DNA from: a virus
Lineage: Duplodnaviria; Caudoviricetes
DNA length: 64,000 nucleotides
Direction: 5' to 3' (one strand)
Virus record (IMG/VR): IMGVR_UViG_3300044652_000025
Location: 32,001-96,000 of that record
In this document: positions 4,418 through 33,175 of the stretch, piece by piece
Position numbering within the stretch: position 1 is the stretch's first letter
Layout: every line of letters starts with the position of its first letter
Notes under the pieces: model-generated
Databases searched by the model: none
Seen by the model: the letters and a program-made list of their open reading frames with translations, nothing else
What the model was told of the DNA's origin: nothing
Translations under genes and position numbers: made by a program

Positions 4418-4543
4418 TCAGCCCTGCGGCTGCGGCTGCGGCTGGTTGGGGTCCGGCTGGTTCGGCTGAGGCTGGTTCGGGTCCGGCTGCTGGGGCTGGT
4501 TCGGGTCAGGCTGGTTCGGCTGGTTCGGCTGCTGGGTGGCCAT
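4418..4543 (-). CDS. 41-aa Q/P/N low-complexity peptide
   Basis: ATG at 4543 with CAGGAGG RBS; QPNQP/DPNQP repeats. Confidence 0.55.
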   Translation of the reverse strand: MATQQPNQPNQPDPNQPQQPDPNQPQPNQPDPNQPQPQPQG

Positions 4544-4616
4544 ATATGCCTCCTGATCGGGGTTTCGCTCCAGGATTCCCCAGCTGACGCCAGTCATCAC
4601 TCCAAGTGATCGCCCG

Positions 4617-4742
4617 TCAATAGCAGTGGCAGTGCGAGGTGATGCTCTCGCTCCGGCACCACATGCAGTTTCCCCGGCCCGCCGGGTAGTAGTACCGCTT
4701 GCAGAACCCACACCAGACCTGTCCGTCCTTCTTCTTGGCCAT
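4617..4742 (-). CDS. 41-aa Cys-rich (Zn-ribbon-like) peptide
   Basis: MAKKKDGQVWCGFCK...CMWC...CHCY; starts 3 nt after thyX stop. Confidence 0.5.
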   Translation of the reverse strand: MAKKKDGQVWCGFCKRYYYPAGRGNCMWCRSESITSHCHCY

Positions 4743-7753: not shown

Positions 7754-8832
7754 CGGCCCAGCACGATCACGGTGTCCTTCTCGTCGGGATTGCCGCCACC
7801 CTTGACGAAGGCATCGATCCACTTCGGCTTGTGGCGGCCCTCGGAGGGATACCACTGGTTCCGGAGGTGACCCCGGACCCAGAAGCTGTGGCTGTAGCCG
7901 CGGCCCTCTCCGTCGCCTCTGGGGCGGTCCCAGGTGTCGTGGTCGTACTCCCGGCGGAGCATGACGACCTTGATGTCGTTGGCCGGGCCGTTGGCCCGCA
8001 TAGCCCGCTTGCGGACGACGCGGTCGAGCCCCATGGACGGGGTGATGACGATCTTCTGGTTGCAGAGGGTCCAGAAGGTGGCGACGATCCGCAGAAAGGA
8101 CTCCGAGCCCAGAAGGTGGGGGTCATCGGGGTCGGGGATCCGCTGATTGAGCATCCAGGTCTGGACGTGGAAGAGGGACAGCTTGTCGGGACTGGCCGAC
8201 TTGGCCTCCAGGACCGACGCGTCGTCCTCGCCCCAGCCCTCGTCGTTGGGGTCCCACTTGTCGGAGTAGACGAAGAACCGGACGGCCTTGGCCAGGGATG
8301 AGCCGTCCTCCCGGACGACGACCGGCGTCTGGATGACCGCGGCGTCCTCCTCTACGGCCCCCTCCCGCGGCTCGTAGTCCAGGGCGTAGGCCTGCTCGGC
8401 CTCAGCCTGGGAAATGGGCGCCGGTCGGGTGCCCTGCGCCGCCATGATCATCACCTCGGTCTCCCACGAGAACGCGGTGATGTTGCAGCGCTTGCCGTGC
8501 CGGTCGACGATGTAGATGGGGTGGGCCAGGAGGCAGAAGCCCCGGCGCGACGGGATGTCGCTGGCCCGGAGTTCGTAGCTCGGGAGCCGCTGACGTTGCT
8601 CGTCGATCATGTCGACCATGGTCGGGGTGACCCAGTAGGTGTCGGCCCGGTCGAGGTTGTAGGCCTCCCGGGCGGCGAACTGCTCCTTGGTACCCAGATC
8701 GAGCGACGGGCCGCCGTCGTCCTCACCCCTGAGCATGTCGACCCAGTAGGAGGCCAGCGCCGGGCCGTAGCGGCCCTTCCACAGGCGGATGAGATCCAGC
8801 TGGGCGTCGAGAGCCTTCATGTAGGAGCGCAT
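7750..8832 (-). CDS. conserved actinophage hypothetical protein, 360 aa
   Basis: C-terminal WVRGHLRNQWY...WIDAFVKG motif; TGATG start at 8832. Confidence 0.8.
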   Translation of the reverse strand: MRSYMKALDAQLDLIRLWKGRYGPALASYWVDMLRGEDDGGPSLDLGTKEQFAAREAYNLDRADTYWVTPTMVDMIDEQRQRLPSYELRASDIPSRRGFCLLAHPIYIVDRHGKRCNITAFSWETEVMIMAAQGTRPAPISQAEAEQAYALDYEPREGAVEEDAAVIQTPVVVREDGSSLAKAVRFFVYSDKWDPNDEGWGEDDASVLEAKSASPDKLSLFHVQTWMLNQRIPDPDDPHLLGSESFLRIVATFWTLCNQKIVITPSMGLDRVVRKRAMRANGPANDIKVVMLRREYDHDTWDRPRGDGEGRGYSHSFWVRGHLRNQWYPSEGRHKPKWIDAFVKGGGNPDEKDTVIVLGR

Positions 8833-9023: not shown

Positions 9024-9352
9024 CAGCCCTGGGCCTCGTAGGCCATGAGGGCAGCGGCCATGCGGCGGGTGGCGGCCGGGGTGCTGTCACGCACGCCGCT
9101 CCAGTCGTAGCCCTGCGGCGGGATGGTGCCCGGCTCCCCGTAGCCGTCGGCCAGCGCGTAGATCAGCGCACGCTTGGCCTTGTCACCGGAGAAGTAGGCG
9201 TCGTAGAGCGCCTTCATGAGCGGCCGCGTCTCGCAGTAGCCGCAGCCTGCCACATCACCGTCGGCCGGGTCGTGGTTGAGGTGTGCCAGCAACTCGTCGC
9301 GGTCGAAGTCACTCGACGGCGGGGCGATGGTGATCTCCAGGGGTTCATTCAT
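9023..9352 (-). CDS. hypothetical protein
   Basis: ORF track; AGAGGAG RBS; first gene after promoter. Confidence 0.75.
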   Translation of the reverse strand: MNEPLEITIAPPSSDFDRDELLAHLNHDPADGDVAGCGYCETRPLMKALYDAYFSGDKAKRALIYALADGYGEPGTIPPQGYDWSGVRDSTPAATRRMAAALMAYEAQG

Positions 9353-25993: not shown

Positions 25994-26701
25994 TTATCGG
26001 GCAAAGATGAGGAGCACCTCCGCCTCGGCCCGGGACTCGTGGTTGGCACCGCGCCTCATCCTGGGGGTGACGATCTCGTGGCGGGCGATGAGCGTGAAGC
26101 CGATCGACTCGCAGATCGATCGATGGGTCTCGACGACGGGCTCTCTCCGGCGCTGACCGCGGTGGGTCCGGTAGCAGTCGCTGACGTTGAGGACGAACGT
26201 CCCCGACCGGGTGAGGGGATCGTAGGGCCGCAGTACCCGATAGACCTCCTGCCAGGCGGCGTCGTGGAAGCGCCAGTAGGCGGGCTGCCAGCAGTAGAGG
26301 GTGCCGCTGTTGGCGGGATCCAGGAGCCGGGTCTCGTCGCCGGTCATCCGCCGGAGGTCGTGGGTGTAGCTCCGGCGGTGGGAGCCGTCCTTGGCCATGT
26401 GGGAGTCGGACATCCTGTTGCCGAACACCGGGCTCACCATGACCGCGTCGATGCTCTCGTCCTCGAAGGGGAGGGCCAGGGCGTTGCCCACCCGGGTGTG
26501 GGGGTGACAGGCCGCCCACTCCGGCTCGATCTCGATACCGATGGTCTCCCGCCCGGCCTGGGCCAGGTCATGGACGCGTCCGATGCCCGCCATGGGGTCG
26601 AGGACGACGCCGGTGTCGGGGAGGATCTGGTGGTTCGCGATGAAGCGGAGGATGGCCTGGCTGTACGGCGCCGGGTGGATGGGCTTGGTGGCGGTCGTCA
26701 T
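25994..26701 (-). CDS. SAM-dependent DNA amino-methyltransferase-like protein
   Basis: VLDPMAGIG, GIEIE, GNALALPF, SPVF in place of SPPY. Confidence 0.75.
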   Translation of the reverse strand: MTTATKPIHPAPYSQAILRFIANHQILPDTGVVLDPMAGIGRVHDLAQAGRETIGIEIEPEWAACHPHTRVGNALALPFEDESIDAVMVSPVFGNRMSDSHMAKDGSHRRSYTHDLRRMTGDETRLLDPANSGTLYCWQPAYWRFHDAAWQEVYRVLRPYDPLTRSGTFVLNVSDCYRTHRGQRRREPVVETHRSICESIGFTLIARHEIVTPRMRRGANHESRAEAEVLLIFAR

Positions 26702-28719
26702 CGTCTCCTCCGGGCCGGTGACGTCGGCATCCCGGGCCTGCGCCTGCCCTTGCCGAAGCCCGAGAGGGCATCGTGGGTCTCGGTCTGCTGGCCACTGTGG
26801 GGCAGGCCACCCTGGGCGGTCCCTCCCACCGGTAGCTCGGCCAGGGTCTTGCCCAGGAAGGCCGCGATCTCGGTGCCGATGAGTTCGTAGGTGCAGATGG
26901 CCAGGCAGTCACTCACGTCTTTCGTTTGTACCGGTCCTGAGGTGGGGTGGTCAACCTTGTTTGTTCCCGCCTCCTGGAGGAAGGTCAACTCCAGGTCCGC
27001 CAGTTCGTGATACGGAGCATGGACGAGTCCCAATCCCAAGGCCGTTTTAAATGTTTCATACGTCTTCCAGTTCAAAGGACCAGTAGCGTCCCGCTCGTAG
27101 ATGGTAACCCGCTTCGGGTAGTTAGCGCTACGGGCGTGCTTACGGAGACGCTGGATCAAAGCCACAGAGTTCCACTGGTCGAAGGACAATTCGTTCGGCA
27201 TGAAGGCGTCCATGTCGACGATGATGTCGTCGGCGATGGCGTCGTAGTCGATCTCGTGGTTCTCGTAGTCACCCGGCAGCCAGGCGTGGATCTTGTCGAA
27301 GACGACGTGCGGGAGACCGCGGTCGTCGTGCCCGGCGACGTGGGCGATGGCCCAGCCGAAGTTGGCGCCGCTCTTGGACGGGTCGCCGTGGGCTCGGTAG
27401 GTCCGACTCAGGATCCCTTGGTGCTGCATCGTCAGGACGTCGCTCTCGGTCGGCCAGGGCTTCCACATGTCAGCGATCCGGTCCGGCCGGAGGTACGCGT
27501 CCAAGACGCTGGCCCAATGAGCGCGCCGCTCGACGGCGAACGTTTCAGGATTGGCAGCTTCTAACCGCTGCATCTCGGCGTCGAAGGTCTGGACCGCGTT
27601 GCGCAGGGCCGGGAAGAAGATCGGCCGCGACACCTGGGGGACGGCGTCGCGGATGTGGGCCGGGGGTGGGATCACCCGCTCCGGCCGGGCCTCCAGCCGG
27701 TGGTGAGGATCCGCGGTGCGCTCCCAGTCAACGTAGGTGTCCCAGCTTGCCAACTGGGCCATGAAGAGGGCCGGGAAGCTCGGCTTGCCGTCCTCATCGT
27801 GCTGGAGCGCCTTGCTGTAGTTGTCGAAGAACGCCCCCAGCCGCTGCCACGGCGACGACGCCTCCCACAGGAAGCCCCACTGCTGGAACTGGTCGAGGGA
27901 CGGGACGGCCGACTCGTAGACCTCGCTGGCGTCGGCCTTGGCCACGGCCCGGACGACGTGCGCCATCTCATCGAAGAACAACATCGCGCTGGCCGGGCCT
28001 CGGGCGGCCATCGTCGTTGCCTCTCTGGCCTCGATGATGAAGGTGGCCATGTCGGCCTCGGTCCCGATGCCTCGGTCGTGGCGGTCGAGCATCCTGATGA
28101 AGTCGTGCGGGGCGTAGACGGTGAAGCTCTCCCCCAGGACCCGGCTGATGTAGGGAGCGAAGCACGGCGCCCCGACGATGACGTTGTTCAAGTCCTTCCA
28201 CTGATGCGCTCGGGCCTGCTCCCGCTTACCGGCGAAGGCCATGGTGGCGATCTGCTTGTCGCGGTCGATTCCGAAGTGACCTTGCGGGTCTCCGAGCGAC
28301 AGGTAGTTCCACAAGACGTACGACCCGGCCAGGGCACCGAGGTAGCCCTTGCCGCCACGTCGACCGATGGGCAGGACCACCTCTCTGAACCACTTCCGGC
28401 CCTCGGCCTTGTTGATCTCGATCCGCTCGAAAATGTCAACAACGAGACCGTTGTTGCCCTCGCCCCGTTCGTCAGCCGACTCCCGGAACTTCGTCGTCCA
28501 TTCGTCAACGACCTCGTAGTCGTAGTCGGTCAGCAGGTCGTCACGAAGGAAAATCAACTTCAACAATGTGGCTTGCCTCGGGTACAGCGTCCGGCCCAAA
28601 TATGCGTCCGAGAGAATGAACTCAATCGGGTCCGGGACCTGAGCCTCAAATCCCGCGACGAGTTCAAAGACCCGCAGGGGGTCGAGGTCGGGCATGAATC
28701 GTCGGGTCCTGGCGGGCAT
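26698..28719 (-). CDS. terL: terminase large subunit
   Basis: YPRQ, GRRGGKG Walker A, LFFDE Walker B, HGDP / FDQWN / KDVSD RNaseH-type nuclease residues. Confidence 0.88.
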   Translation of the reverse strand: MPARTRRFMPDLDPLRVFELVAGFEAQVPDPIEFILSDAYLGRTLYPRQATLLKLIFLRDDLLTDYDYEVVDEWTTKFRESADERGEGNNGLVVDIFERIEINKAEGRKWFREVVLPIGRRGGKGYLGALAGSYVLWNYLSLGDPQGHFGIDRDKQIATMAFAGKREQARAHQWKDLNNVIVGAPCFAPYISRVLGESFTVYAPHDFIRMLDRHDRGIGTEADMATFIIEAREATTMAARGPASAMLFFDEMAHVVRAVAKADASEVYESAVPSLDQFQQWGFLWEASSPWQRLGAFFDNYSKALQHDEDGKPSFPALFMAQLASWDTYVDWERTADPHHRLEARPERVIPPPAHIRDAVPQVSRPIFFPALRNAVQTFDAEMQRLEAANPETFAVERRAHWASVLDAYLRPDRIADMWKPWPTESDVLTMQHQGILSRTYRAHGDPSKSGANFGWAIAHVAGHDDRGLPHVVFDKIHAWLPGDYENHEIDYDAIADDIIVDMDAFMPNELSFDQWNSVALIQRLRKHARSANYPKRVTIYERDATGPLNWKTYETFKTALGLGLVHAPYHELADLELTFLQEAGTNKVDHPTSGPVQTKDVSDCLAICTYELIGTEIAAFLGKTLAELPVGGTAQGGLPHSGQQTETHDALSGFGKGRRRPGMPTSPARRRR

Positions 28720-28740: not shown

Positions 28741-28767
28741 CGGTCGAGGGCTTCATACCCTCGACCG
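28741..28767 (-). terminator. intrinsic terminator closing the RAMP-array operon
   Basis: 10-bp perfect stem CGGTCGAGGG/CCCTCGACCG followed by TTTCACTT on minus strand. Confidence 0.85.
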
Positions 28768-28778
28768 CTCCACCCATG

Positions 28779-29333
28779 ACTGCCATGCCGAACTCGAACC
28801 TGACGAGCATCGCCGCGCCAAGCCCCGCCGACCCACGCCTTGACTGCCGAGTCGAGACCAGCCTACGCCCGCCTAACCGCGGCGAACCCAGCCCTGACTG
28901 CCGAGCCATTCCACGTCCAGACACGCCGTGCCATGACTGCCGCGGCACGACCCGCCTCTCCTAGCCTACGCGTGCCTCACCTCTCCGAGGCTGCCGGGCC
29001 AGGCCCAACCATCGCTGGTCAAGCCCAGCCAAGCCGCACCCTGACTGCCTCGCCCTAACGGGCCATGCCTGTCCATGCACCTCCTCAACGGGCCGTACCT
29101 TGCCACTGCTGCCAGGCCAACGCCTGCCGTGATGTACCAAGCCCTGCCGAGACGAGACCGTCCCCTCCACACCGCTACTGCCCTGACCTACCGGGCCTAG
29201 CCTCTACACGCCCGTCCTAGCCATTGCTGGCGAGCCGAGCCGAACCGCTCCATGACCTTGCGCACTTGCCCTGCCATACCAAGACTGCCGAGCCTTGCCG
29301 CGGCCTGCCTAGCCTCACCAAACCGAGGCTGCC
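28779..29333 (-). ncRNA. guide-RNA array 2: 10 units of GGCA+(GGY-like NN)n
   Basis: Delimiter spacings (+ strand order) 64,54,39,54,54,64,69,49,58,44; 5-nt periodicity; no credible ORF. Confidence 0.85.
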
Positions 29334-29370: not shown

Positions 29371-29871
29371 CTAGACCGCCTCGGCCTCTCCGTCGTCGTC
29401 GTCGCGGTCGATGTCATCGAGCGCGGCCCAGACTCCGGCCAGAGCACTGAGGTGCCGGTACCGGCGCCGCAGAGCCTGGAGGGCGACCAACGCATCTTTG
29501 AGCATCTGATTTCTCAGATCCTCGCGGTCGACCACCGTCTGAGTGTTGGTGTAGCCACGGTCACCGTCCTTCCGGACCGAGACGAAGGCGACGATGGGTT
29601 CGTCACTGCCCTCGACCACGATGCGGATGTCTCTGATGATCCGGCGAGCCTGACTCAGCCAATACTGCTCGGCGGCGTGGTTTTTGTCCCACCCACGCCA
29701 GTCGGCCATGTTGTGCAACGGCGAGTTGCGCTTCTTGGCCTCGGCTACCAACGCGTGCGGGGTGCAGACACCGTCGCGGTCCTCGATCTTCTTGATCTCG
29801 CCGTAGACGATGTTGGCGTCGACACCATGGCTCTGCTTCCACGACACGAACGCTGTCGGTTCTCCACTCAT
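29371..29871 (-). CDS. accessory protein of the RAMP-array system, 166 aa
   Basis: AAAGGAGG RBS; TP..LV..A...SPLH...W....AAEQY.L.QARRII motif; sits between the two arrays. Confidence 0.85.
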   Translation of the reverse strand: MSGEPTAFVSWKQSHGVDANIVYGEIKKIEDRDGVCTPHALVAEAKKRNSPLHNMADWRGWDKNHAAEQYWLSQARRIIRDIRIVVEGSDEPIVAFVSVRKDGDRGYTNTQTVVDREDLRNQMLKDALVALQALRRRYRHLSALAGVWAALDDIDRDDDDGEAEAV

Positions 29872-29893: not shown

Positions 29894-30929
29894 CCTGCCG
29901 TGACAAGCCAAACCGATCCGGGCCAAGCCCAAACGGGCCTAACCGCGCCAAGCCACGACTGCCGTTACCAACCCGGACCTGCCTGGCCGAACCTGACCGG
30001 GACGAGCCTTGCCTGGACTGGCGAGGCTTGCCGGGCCGTAACACGACTAGACCGGCCTATCCCTGCCCTGACTGCCATGCCTAAACCTGCCCTGGCTTGC
30101 CATGACGACCTAGCCCTACCACTGCTGCCGTGACCAGCCTGGCCGGTCCACGACGCTCCTAGCCGAGCCGTACCTTGCCTCGTCTGCCACGCCCTGCGAA
30201 GCCATCGCTTGCCCATCCTGACCATGGCTGCCGAGCCGGGACCGTCCCAAGCCGGGCACACCTAGCCACTCCATGACTGCCAAACCGGGACCTGCCTGGC
30301 CTGGACACACCTGGCCGAGCCGACCCGCACCTTGCCACTGCTGCCATGACGAACCGCTCCATGCCGTTGCGTGCCGCGACCTGCCAAGCCTTGGCGAGGC
30401 TGCCGAGACCTGACTGGCGACGCCAAGCCGGGCCTGGACATCCCGCGCAACGCCCTGACTCGACTGCCCTGCCAAACCCATCCGGGCCGTGACATGCCAC
30501 CCGAGCCGTGCCTGGGCTGCCGTGCCGCACCTGACCTCGACGGGACCAGACCATCCTGGCCCAGCCAAGCGCAGACCCGCCTCGACTGCCCTACCTCGCC
30601 AAGCCCTGCCTCGGCCCGACCCGGAGATCCAGGCCGAGGCTGGCTGGCCACACCGTGCCTCGACGCTGCGAGACATGCACCGCCTAGCCCATCCTCTACT
30701 GCCATGACCGGCCATGCGTTGCCACGGCGAGCCTTGGCCGGACCGGACCTGACGATCCAAGCCCAACCATGGCTGCCGCTCCACTGCTGCCCTGACAAGC
30801 CTTGGCTCGACGTGCCCCTGCGGGAGTCGCCGGGCCAAGCCACTGCTGCCATGCCGTGACCCGCCATGACATACCGGGGCGCACACCGCCCATACATGAC
30901 CGGGCGAGCCGAGCCATGCCGTGTCTGCC
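29894..30929 (-). ncRNA. guide-RNA array 1: 18 units of GGCA+(GGY-like NN)n
   Basis: Delimiter spacings (+ strand order) 64,59,54,53,59,44,49,64,59,64,53,69,54,59,74,14,59,79. Confidence 0.88.
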
Positions 30930-30954: not shown

Positions 30955-31593
30955 CTAGTTGCTGACCTGGAACATTCCGTACGAACCGGACGCCGACTTC
31001 GGCGCCGACGGCCGCCACTCACCAACCCCACCGAGACCGGCGGCGTCGACCAGAGCGAAGACCGACGAGGCGTCGAGCATGTGCGGCAGGTACGTGACCT
31101 TGAGGATGGCCGACCACGGCCAGAAGCCAGCCCGGTAGCGGATGTCAGCGACACCCGACTCCAACCTGACCATGTCCTCACGCATGTGAGGCTCGGCCGA
31201 AATCGCCACCAGGTCGGTCCCCTCCTCGGGGTTGATGAAGAGGGCGGCCTTGGCCTGGACCATGGTCAAGCCGTCGAAGTGCCTCACGGCGCCGACGAGA
31301 GCGGCCTTGAAGGCGGTGGCGGGGATGGCGCAGCGGCCGTCGGGGAGCCGGTAGATGGACGACTCGTAGTCGGCCTGCGGGTCCTTCGGCTCCTTCTTCG
31401 GCTTGGTGCCGCGAGCCATCTGGCTCTCCAACATCATTCTCTTGGCCTTCTCGGACCAGCGGTGGGTGATCAACTCGGAGGTGCCCTCGATCGGGACCTC
31501 GATGGTGACGCGCTCCAGGCGCTTCAGGACGACGGTGGGACCCTCGGTGACGCCAGCGACCTTCCCGGCGCCATTGGTTTTGGTCATTGCCAT
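30955..31593 (-). CDS. Cas7/RAMP-like RNA-binding protein (Vipr-like), 212 aa
   Basis: IEGTSELITH first strand, IPATAFKAAL helix, C-terminal Gly loop GLGGVGEWRP...GSYGMF; ATG 31593 with CAGGAG RBS. Confidence 0.8.
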   Translation of the reverse strand: MAMTKTNGAGKVAGVTEGPTVVLKRLERVTIEVPIEGTSELITHRWSEKAKRMMLESQMARGTKPKKEPKDPQADYESSIYRLPDGRCAIPATAFKAALVGAVRHFDGLTMVQAKAALFINPEEGTDLVAISAEPHMREDMVRLESGVADIRYRAGFWPWSAILKVTYLPHMLDASSVFALVDAAGLGGVGEWRPSAPKSASGSYGMFQVSN

Positions 31594-32194: not shown

Positions 32195-33175
32195 TTACTT
32201 CTTCTTGCGGCTCTTCGGGATCGGGAGCTTCTTGACGTCGCTCCCGGCGATGATCCCGGCGTTGTAGTGCTTGGCCAGGGCGTCGGCGATGGCCCGCGGC
32301 TTGCTGGTGTAGTGCTCCTTCGAGTTGCGGATCGGGTCGGCCAGCGCCGATGGCGGCCACTGCCGGAGCGTCACGATGAGGTGACCCTCGTCGAACAGCG
32401 GGGTCTTGACCAGGCCGCCCTGCTCGTCGACCGACAGCTTGGTGTAGCGCCGGACGAACTCCCCGACGGACTGGAGCGTGAGGTACGCCCAGGCGTCCGG
32501 ATACTGCTGCTGGACCCAGGACTTGTTGATGACCCGGAAGACCGTGGCCAGCCCGTCCTCGCCGATGGTGGCGTACATCTTGCGGAGCGCCTTGACGGCG
32601 GTGATGCCACCGAGACCCACGGTCAGGCCGTTGTCGGAGGCGATCCGGTCGACGGCCACCGCCTCGGGGTCACCGGCCTTGAGGTCGGTCTTGTAGAGGT
32701 CCGTCGGCGAGAAGCTCGTCCGGCCCCGGTGGATGGTGCCGGTCTGGTTGGCCTCGGCACCGACGCTCATACCCTTGTGGACCCAGCAGGGCACCTGCAT
32801 GTCCGGGTTGATGATCTGGGCCACGATGGTCCGGTGCTGGCCCTCGGGCGACCAGAGGCTGGCGTCGGGACGCTCGTTGACGTCGATGGGCTCGAAGGCG
32901 TAGGGGTCGAAGTTCCTGATCAGATCCTTGGCCTTCTTCAGGTTGATTCGCCGCTGGTAGCTCTTGTCGACGTTGATGTCCCCGGCCCGGACGTAGCGGA
33001 GTTCGCCGGTGAGCTTCATCTCCGCCAGTTCCTGGCGGCGCTCCTCGGGGATCTCCTTCTCGTACCAGTCGCGCAGGGCCTTGAGCTTGTCCTCCTCGGA
33101 CAGTTCGGTCCGGGGGCGCCTCGGGGTGGGAGTCTCCTCCTCGTCCGCGAGGTCGAGGTCGTCGTCTTCACTCAT
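32195..33175 (-). CDS. ParB/Srx-like N-terminal domain protein
   Basis: VDKSYQR..., IDVNER, EGQHR motif. Confidence 0.8.
   Translation of the reverse strand: MSEDDDLDLADEEETPTPRRPRTELSEEDKLKALRDWYEKEIPEERRQELAEMKLTGELRYVRAGDINVDKSYQRRINLKKAKDLIRNFDPYAFEPIDVNERPDASLWSPEGQHRTIVAQIINPDMQVPCWVHKGMSVGAEANQTGTIHRGRTSFSPTDLYKTDLKAGDPEAVAVDRIASDNGLTVGLGGITAVKALRKMYATIGEDGLATVFRVINKSWVQQQYPDAWAYLTLQSVGEFVRRYTKLSVDEQGGLVKTPLFDEGHLIVTLRQWPPSALADPIRNSKEHYTSKPRAIADALAKHYNAGIIAGSDVKKLPIPKSRKKK

Follow-up and report, generated by a model that had tools for sequence, protein, structure and literature searches.

Does a guide-like repeat unit that lies immediately beside the gene for its presumed protein partner address that same gene, the equivalent gene of a competitor, or neither? 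The question is raised by a 64,000-nt window (the whole stretch of DNA analyzed here), in which the first unit of a non-coding pentamer array partially matches the adjacent gene. The original prediction, made from the letters of the sequence, took the unit for a guide RNA addressed to a family of RAMP genes, used either to silence the RAMP gene of a competing system or to autoregulate its own gene through a partial, seed-only match.

Organization and identity of the locus

The locus belongs to a single virus record of 151,490 bp with 66% G+C. On the minus strand, a gene for a 212-aa protein (P0001, 30955..31593; vipr) is followed by a first array of approximately 20 units (29895..30929), a gene for a 166-aa accessory protein (P0002, 29371..29871; vap), a second array of approximately 11 units (28785..29333) and, directly downstream of array 2, the gene for a 673-aa large terminase (26698..28719; terL). 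By tblastn, this terminase is approximately 31% identical to the TerL proteins of Gordonia, Rhodococcus and Mycobacterium phages of 135–165 kb. The arrays were delimited by period-5 autocorrelation and by parsing into pentamers: throughout non-coding positions 28785–29333 and 29895–30929 the autocorrelation is 0.41–0.53 at lag 5 and about 0.2 at lag 3, and the flanking genes show the opposite pattern. No other such arrays occur in the 151,490-bp record. On the plus strand the pentamers consist of two variable bases and GCC, GAC or ACC, and they are grouped into units of 2–15 pentamers (15 being the longest, not the rule) that are split by a 4-nt TGCC with a 1-base shift of phase. The neighboring genes all have the minus strand as their sense strand, and there the same units read as GGCA followed by G[G/U][C/U]NN repeats; they abut one another through a 1-nt phase slip at GGCA, without long tails.

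The arrays have no match in Rfam, including its CRISPR entries, and a consensus promoter and terminator scan of the locus made no call. The gap from array 2 to the start of terL holds a perfect 9-bp inverted repeat, GGTCGAGGG..CCCTCGACC (28744–28768), which has no T run and was therefore missed by a simple terminator scan. Upstream of vipr is a ParB-like gene (32195–33175; DUF6551, phrog_1033), and one array unit (30233–30277) decodes to the ParB-type motif D/E-G-R-H/Q-R; its match to the phage's own ParB-like gene is not above chance.

Arrays with this periodicity are known from VIPR (Viral Interference Programmable Repeat), a CRISPR-like form of RNA-guided gene silencing presented in 2026 preprints. 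As set out in the discovery preprint, the phage-borne protein Vipr is proposed to be an ancestral RAMP, its guides (vrRNAs) alternate GGY with NN and read double-stranded DNA by a '1 nt skip rule' in which the skipped bases are codon wobble positions, targets lie on both strands, and the effect is transcriptional silencing (10.64898/2026.04.26.720920). In the solved type II complexes, Vipr protomers bury GGY and present NN, and a gapped R-loop triplex is seen (10.64898/2026.04.26.720927). Binding of double-stranded DNA and repression by the VIPR RNP are known, in the literature, only for the systems of Escherichia phage SUSP1 and a Pseudomonas fulva prophage.

Pfam has no family for the product of vipr or vap. 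The 212-aa protein falls in phrog_4652, where its function is unassigned, and has 3585 homologs in a large protein collection. Its AlphaFold (AF2) model, built from 40 homologs, has a mean pLDDT of 86, and the best PDB matches found by Foldseek are all backbone proteins of the Cas7 family, namely Csm3, type VII Cas7, Cmr4 and Cas7-11 (E from 3e-6, probability 1.00, TM 0.4–0.5). A profile of the family aligns with SUSP1 Vipr in the C-terminal G-loop region, GGVGEWRP/GVGDWRP (hhalign 96.6%, E 6e-10). The vap product (phrog_15946) yields a model with a pLDDT of 91 whose fold matches are weak though consistently winged-helix-like, and BLASTP revealed no similarity between it and SUSP1 vap1. Pentamer arrays were present in all of the homolog loci examined first, comprising Mycobacterium phage Saal, four IMG/VR contigs and a Logan contig (array of 2.2 kb). 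In a larger set, a GGY/NN pentamer array accompanies vipr in approximately 150 of 170 homolog loci, the G-rich strand nearly always being that of the gene, and a vap homolog follows vipr in 88 loci.

We assign the locus to VIPR because of the Csm3/Cas7-like fold of its protein, the profile match to SUSP1 Vipr and the recurrence of arrays in homolog loci, and it is best explained as the VIPR locus of a 151-kb actinobacteriophage. Further features agree with this assignment: GGY-like/NN tandem pentamers lie beside vipr on the vipr strand; the three strong matches found in the window and a further one in a related array, L007, are in frame and follow a 1-nt skip on the codon wobble; vap lies beside vipr; and the locus is virus-encoded, with a TerL gene adjacent. 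The locus is a VIPR system of a large actinobacteriophage, and it widens the range of VIPR beyond the phages of Escherichia and Pseudomonas in which it has been studied so far.

The type II systems of SUSP1 and the P. fulva prophage likewise pair a Vipr RAMP with vap in a phage-borne locus and carry GGY/NN pentamers on the gene strand that skip one base onto the wobble position of targets on either strand. Type II guides, however, are each followed by a conserved, structured pseudoknot tail of approximately 40–60 nt at the 3′ end, as is evident in the SUSP1 arrays, whereas the window units abut at GGCA without a tail; the locus is therefore not type II. Its scaffold, G[G/U][C/U], is looser than the type II GGY, its hosts are actinobacterial rather than Escherichia or Pseudomonas, and its arrays are much larger, with approximately 30 units in the window and approximately 45 in L007 as against four in SUSP1. 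The discovery preprint distinguishes seven VIPR types and mentions, without characterizing them, 'staggered arrays' with a 1-nt overlap between vrRNAs (10.64898/2026.04.26.720920). The window arrays match this staggered architecture, for which the literature offers mention only. Type III CRISPR-Cas backbone proteins of the Cas7 family (Csm3/Cmr4) share with Vipr, a single-RRM protein, the RRM-based RAMP fold, G-loop and thumb, and likewise form a helical filament on a guide RNA with periodically displaced bases. Unlike type III loci, the window locus has neither CRISPR repeats nor spacers, and cas genes (Cas10, Cas6 or Cas1-Cas2) are missing from its neighborhood; VIPR moreover uses a 5-nt register rather than one of 6 nt, pairs only two of every five guide bases, and silences by binding double-stranded DNA where type III cleaves RNA.

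VIPR also extends to the well-known cluster F mycobacteriophages, among them Saal, ByChance and Brocalys, in which the vipr and vap homologs are genes 51 and 52, both annotated as hypothetical. In Saal (L001, NC_023580.1, approximately 36.6 kb), about 250 nt of GGY/NN array lie at 4452–4710 between genes 50 and 51, in what GenBank presents as an intergenic gap; the NN complexity of this array is lower than that of the window array. The known picture of VIPR is unchanged by these loci, and what is gained is a tractable example in phages of Mycobacterium smegmatis.

The match between unit 1 and the adjacent vipr gene

Unit 1 of array 1 (30851..30929, minus strand) was defined by the pentamer parse. 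Read on the plus strand from position 30851, it consists of 15 pentamers of the NN+GCC/GAC type closed by a 4-nt TGCC at 30926–30929; in the RNA sense its 79 bases form 15 GGY/NN-type pentamers and a 4-nt GGCA junction. The variable dinucleotides are AT GT CC AT AT GG GC CC CA AT CG GA GA AT GT, exactly as the original prediction had listed them. The near-cognate site that it had placed in the RAMP gene is also borne out. Codons 128–142 of the phage's own vipr (LVAISAEPHMREDMV; 31168..31212, minus strand) read CTG GTG GCG ATT TCG GCC GAG CCT CAC ATG CGT GAG GAC ATG GTC from 31212 to 31168, and their first and second positions equal unit 1 at 10 of 15 dinucleotides and 24 of 30 read bases. The last eight dinucleotides, which come nearest the 5′ end once the unit is read as minus-strand RNA, form an unbroken run identical to the gene. 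The site is in codon frame (31593 − 31212 = 381 = 127 × 3) and the match falls on the sense strand of the adjacent gene; unit 1 would be predicted to pair there with the vipr coding strand.

This site is the single best gapped match of unit 1 on either strand of the 151,490-bp genome. Among shuffled guides, 0 of 300 reached 10/15 anywhere in the genome, and in a second run 4 of 2000 did so (p ~0.0025). Every unit of at least nine dinucleotides was scanned against the window and the whole genome, on both strands, with the target spacing varied from 2 to 6. Matches above shuffled guides arose at spacing 3 alone, which corresponds to a 1-base skip, with spacings 2, 4, 5 and 6 giving noise at 6–7/15, and only three units gave outliers, namely unit 1 and the closing units of arrays 1 and 2. 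The 10/15 match of unit 1 to vipr is thus confirmed as a real and statistically sound observation. Several other proposals of the original prediction gain support as well: the guide role of unit 1 agrees with published VIPR, the Cas7-like fold supports the RAMP identity of the neighboring gene, and the reading of codon positions 1 and 2 with the wobble base skipped is supported by the in-frame matches and by the success of period 3 alone. The original prediction had thereby arrived at features of published VIPR from the sequence by itself. The system to which unit 1 belongs is not an unknown one, VIPR and vipr-directed guides having already been described.

Other functions considered for the arrays were a TRAP-like RNA-binding array, a terminase packaging (pac) site, G-quadruplex or i-motif DNA, a Rho-loading site, and a translated or tRNA-templating RNA; all were dropped, as they fail to explain the in-frame matches at codon positions 1 and 2.

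The probable target of unit 1

Decoded as codon positions 1 and 2, unit 1 reads [I/M]VP[I/M][I/M]GAPHMR[D/E][D/E][I/M]V, and the aligned Vipr segment in 120 close homologs has the consensus LVPIxGEPHMREDMV; within the Vipr family this is the internal motif with the highest conservation. At Pro position 3 and Gly position 6, unit 1 follows this consensus and not its own gene, which upholds the proposal that its address is the RAMP gene family. The match rises to 12–13 of 15 dinucleotides in homologs. Scored by read bases, unit 1 agrees with the vipr of L006 at 28 of 30, with those of L169 and L167 at 27 (L167, at 89% aa identity, is the only close relative available), and with those of L170 and L168 at 25 and 24, respectively. 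Unit 1 therefore matches its own gene at 80% of read bases versus 90–93% for L167, L169 and L006, which makes the locus a ready-made test of how VIPR distinguishes self from non-self. The own-gene score is exactly the 80% cut-off used for targets in the literature, and the margin between self and non-self is just 3–4 bases. Among all window units, unit 1 alone has a significant non-self match in 1.19 Mb of other VIPR loci.

A perfect target, which the original prediction envisaged in RAMP homologs, was not found: in IMG/VR the exact 15/15 pattern of unit 1 returned no matches and no 29/30 match was seen, under a scan whose gapped positive control worked. The full and relaxed patterns also returned nothing from JGI metagenome contigs, but L167, a JGI contig that fits the relaxed pattern, was missed there, and these two negatives carry little weight as evidence of absence. 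With up to three mismatches allowed, unit 1 had no match in 401 genomes from the class to which the L091-bearing Mycobacterium szulgai genome belongs. Exact scans of IMG/VR with the terL-like and vap-like units described below and with a P-loop-like unit gave no matches either. When 779 units were compared with 1.19 Mb of vipr-flanking DNA, seven one-mismatch matches were obtained versus one in shuffles, a slight excess; vipr-flanking DNA holds few targets.

The favored reading, to which we assign a probability of roughly 60%, is a VIPR locus whose unit 1 binds vipr in close relatives, whether co-infecting or resident, and silences it. It is favored because unit 1 fits the family consensus and the genes of relatives better than its own gene. 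Following the published mechanism, Vipr protomers would polymerize on each vrRNA, burying the GGY-like triplets and exposing NN; the NN dinucleotides would pair with one strand of double-stranded DNA with every third base skipped, and the bound filament would block transcription. Unit 1 would be a 15-protomer guide reading the conserved internal Vipr motif, and its main job would be to silence vipr in closely related phages. The five mismatched codons of the own gene (L, A, S, A and E), which face the 3′ half of the vrRNA, would lower binding to self, such that the own allele would be partly protected. The type II structures show protomers and R-loop growing from the tail in the 3′ to 5′ direction (10.64898/2026.04.26.720927), and by analogy the self mismatches of unit 1 would sit where pairing begins. 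The same directionality leaves unsupported the proposal that the eight perfect dinucleotides constitute a seed at the RNA 5′ end. We infer that, in this phage, the arrays are transcribed and processed, and that the resulting RNPs form, bind and silence.

Targeting of a rival's vipr has the strongest support, and the same behavior has already been reported for Pseudomonas and enterobacterial phages. According to the discovery preprint, some vrRNAs of the P. fulva clade aim at other VIPR systems (10.64898/2026.04.26.720920). A preprint of October 2026 describes, in SUSP1-family phages, solo vrRNAs that target vipr and are mostly wobble-aligned, as well as vrRNAs that target other vrRNAs and score lower on self than on the vrRNAs of other phages (10.64898/2026.10.15.759431). 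The better fit of unit 1 to relatives is close to this last pattern. Like the published anti-VIPR vrRNAs, unit 1 takes as its predicted target the effector gene of a rival VIPR, in wobble alignment and with a self score below the non-self score. Unlike the solo vrRNAs of the SUSP1 family, it sits in a VIPR-positive phage, directly after the phage's own vipr, and unlike published vipr-targeting guides, which address early or late codons, it reads an internal conserved motif and has a self score that reaches 80% of read bases.

The other option put forward in the original prediction, autoregulation, is unlikely. Vipr carrying unit 1 would bind the own vipr through the eight perfect units and damp vipr, the arrays, vap and perhaps terL, and the vap-like and terL-like terminal units would act likewise on their own genes. 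Eight contiguous units supply 16 read bases and a 23-bp footprint, which might suffice given that SUSP1 vrRNA4 is described as covering 18 bp of its natural target with just six units (10.64898/2026.10.15.759431). All three self-like units adjoin their cognate gene, a unit of L007 agrees with its own vipr at 18 of 20 read bases, and across 779 units there are 18 self-locus matches at p<=0.01 versus 7.8 expected, or about twice as many. A self-regulator should nevertheless track its own gene, and unit 1 tracks the family consensus where the own gene differs. Its mismatches, moreover, occupy the 3′ half, from which the solved complexes assemble; self-matching units are rare in the clade, with 2 of approximately 650 units at >=90% against vipr; and the discovery preprint reports no self matches of at least 80% in types II, III and V (10.64898/2026.04.26.720920).

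Quite doubtful, too, is the idea that unit 1 once fitted a rival or ancestral vipr allele and is now drifting without an effective target, its resemblance to the own gene merely reflecting shared family conservation. The exact target is absent from the collections searched, the JGI scans being subject to the miss noted above, and several scaffold triplets of unit 1 depart from GGY (GAC, GUA, UGU and GCC), a type of change that, according to the discovery preprint, abolished SUSP1 silencing (10.64898/2026.04.26.720920). G[G/U][C/U] scaffolds are, however, the norm in this clade, and the preprint describes internal degeneracy of vrRNAs as frequent. The lineage has also barely been sampled, the closest vipr in IMG/VR being only 56–57% identical to that of the window, and the one known close relative, L167, already reaches 27/30. 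As for chance, by which a non-coding repeat array would happen to resemble a gene close by, 10/15 was attained somewhere in the genome by the 4 of 2000 shuffled guides; but the match lies in the adjacent gene, on its sense strand and in codon frame, it climbs to 12–13/15 in homologs, and two more terminal units match vap and terL in the same manner, which together make coincidence highly improbable. Silencing of a rival's vipr thus remains the favored reading of unit 1.

Terminal units, leucine codons and related arrays

The other two outliers of the scan also resemble genes of the locus. The last unit of array 1 (29895..29959, minus strand) matches the own vap at 29542–29580 (SVRKDGDRGYTNT) at 8 of 13 dinucleotides and 19 of 26 bases, and the last unit of array 2 (28785..28848, minus strand) matches the own terL at 27538–27573 (MQRLEAANPETF) at 9 of 12 dinucleotides and 21 of 24 bases. 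Both matches are on the sense strand of the gene and in codon frame, with genome-wide p values, from 2000 shuffles, of approximately 0.03 and 0.001, respectively. When the vap-like unit was compared with distant vap homologs, a comparison that included no close relatives, the own gene was its best match. All three self-family units are terminal in their array and adjoin the cognate gene, at the start of terL, the start of vap and the stop of vipr, and no internal unit of the window arrays resembles vipr, vap or terL. The adjacency might reflect a need to keep each guide linked to the resistant allele of the gene that it targets.

The terL site contains the sole TTA of the gene (1 of 56 Leu codons) at precisely the position where the guide reads CT, and 6 of its 12 wobble bases are A or T in a genome of 66% G+C. 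A comparable situation is found in L007, whose first unit after vap (9140–9189) corresponds to codons VEYLPTMLTE of its own vipr (8517–8546) at 18 of 20 read bases and at 10 of 10 positions on the amino-acid level. Both mismatches fall on Leu, where the guide has CT and the gene TTG. The RNA of this unit has the sense sequence, such that the template strand would be predicted to be bound. The L007 self match exceeds the 80% level at which the discovery preprint reported none (10.64898/2026.04.26.720920).

To a code that skips the wobble base, synonymous changes are visible only at Leu, Arg and Ser codons. Because these six-fold degenerate codons can change synonymously at the bases that are read, they could provide an escape route, which hints at a loophole in the 'escape-proof' wobble-skipping code. 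We tentatively propose that, in this clade of tail-less long arrays, guides against the phage's own gene families (vipr, vap and terL) may be kept beside a resistant allele as a linked 'poison-antidote' pair, with resistance that is partly synonymous (Leu CTN to TTR), as exemplified by the sole terL TTA and the two TTG codons of L007 vipr. Such near-cognate guides may, in addition, adjust the activity of the operon in which they lie. The adjacency of guide and gene for three units, the self matches of 80–90% and the mismatches at synonymous Leu codons may be new.

Among the other loci, a unit of L010 (~4450) matches L016 and a unit of L165 (~2659) matches L074, in each case at the Vipr G-loop motif WRPSAPK in the vipr of another phage. 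These matches, from two unrelated arrays, are in frame and reach 80% of read bases, a level at the edge of the shuffle null; they hint at recurrent targeting of conserved Vipr motifs.

The arrays of the window and of the distantly related L007, whose vipr genes are 57% identical, also have two units in common. One lies at 30792–30846 in the window (CT AA TT TC GT CC GG TC GG AA AC) and at ~10320 in L007 (TC AA TT AG GT CC GG TC GG AA AC); it decodes to the P-loop-like xxFSVPGSGKT, with Ser written as TC in one array and as AG in the other. The second pair, at 30346–30400 in the window and ~10101 in L007, shares AT GT GT GC CT AA TT GA.
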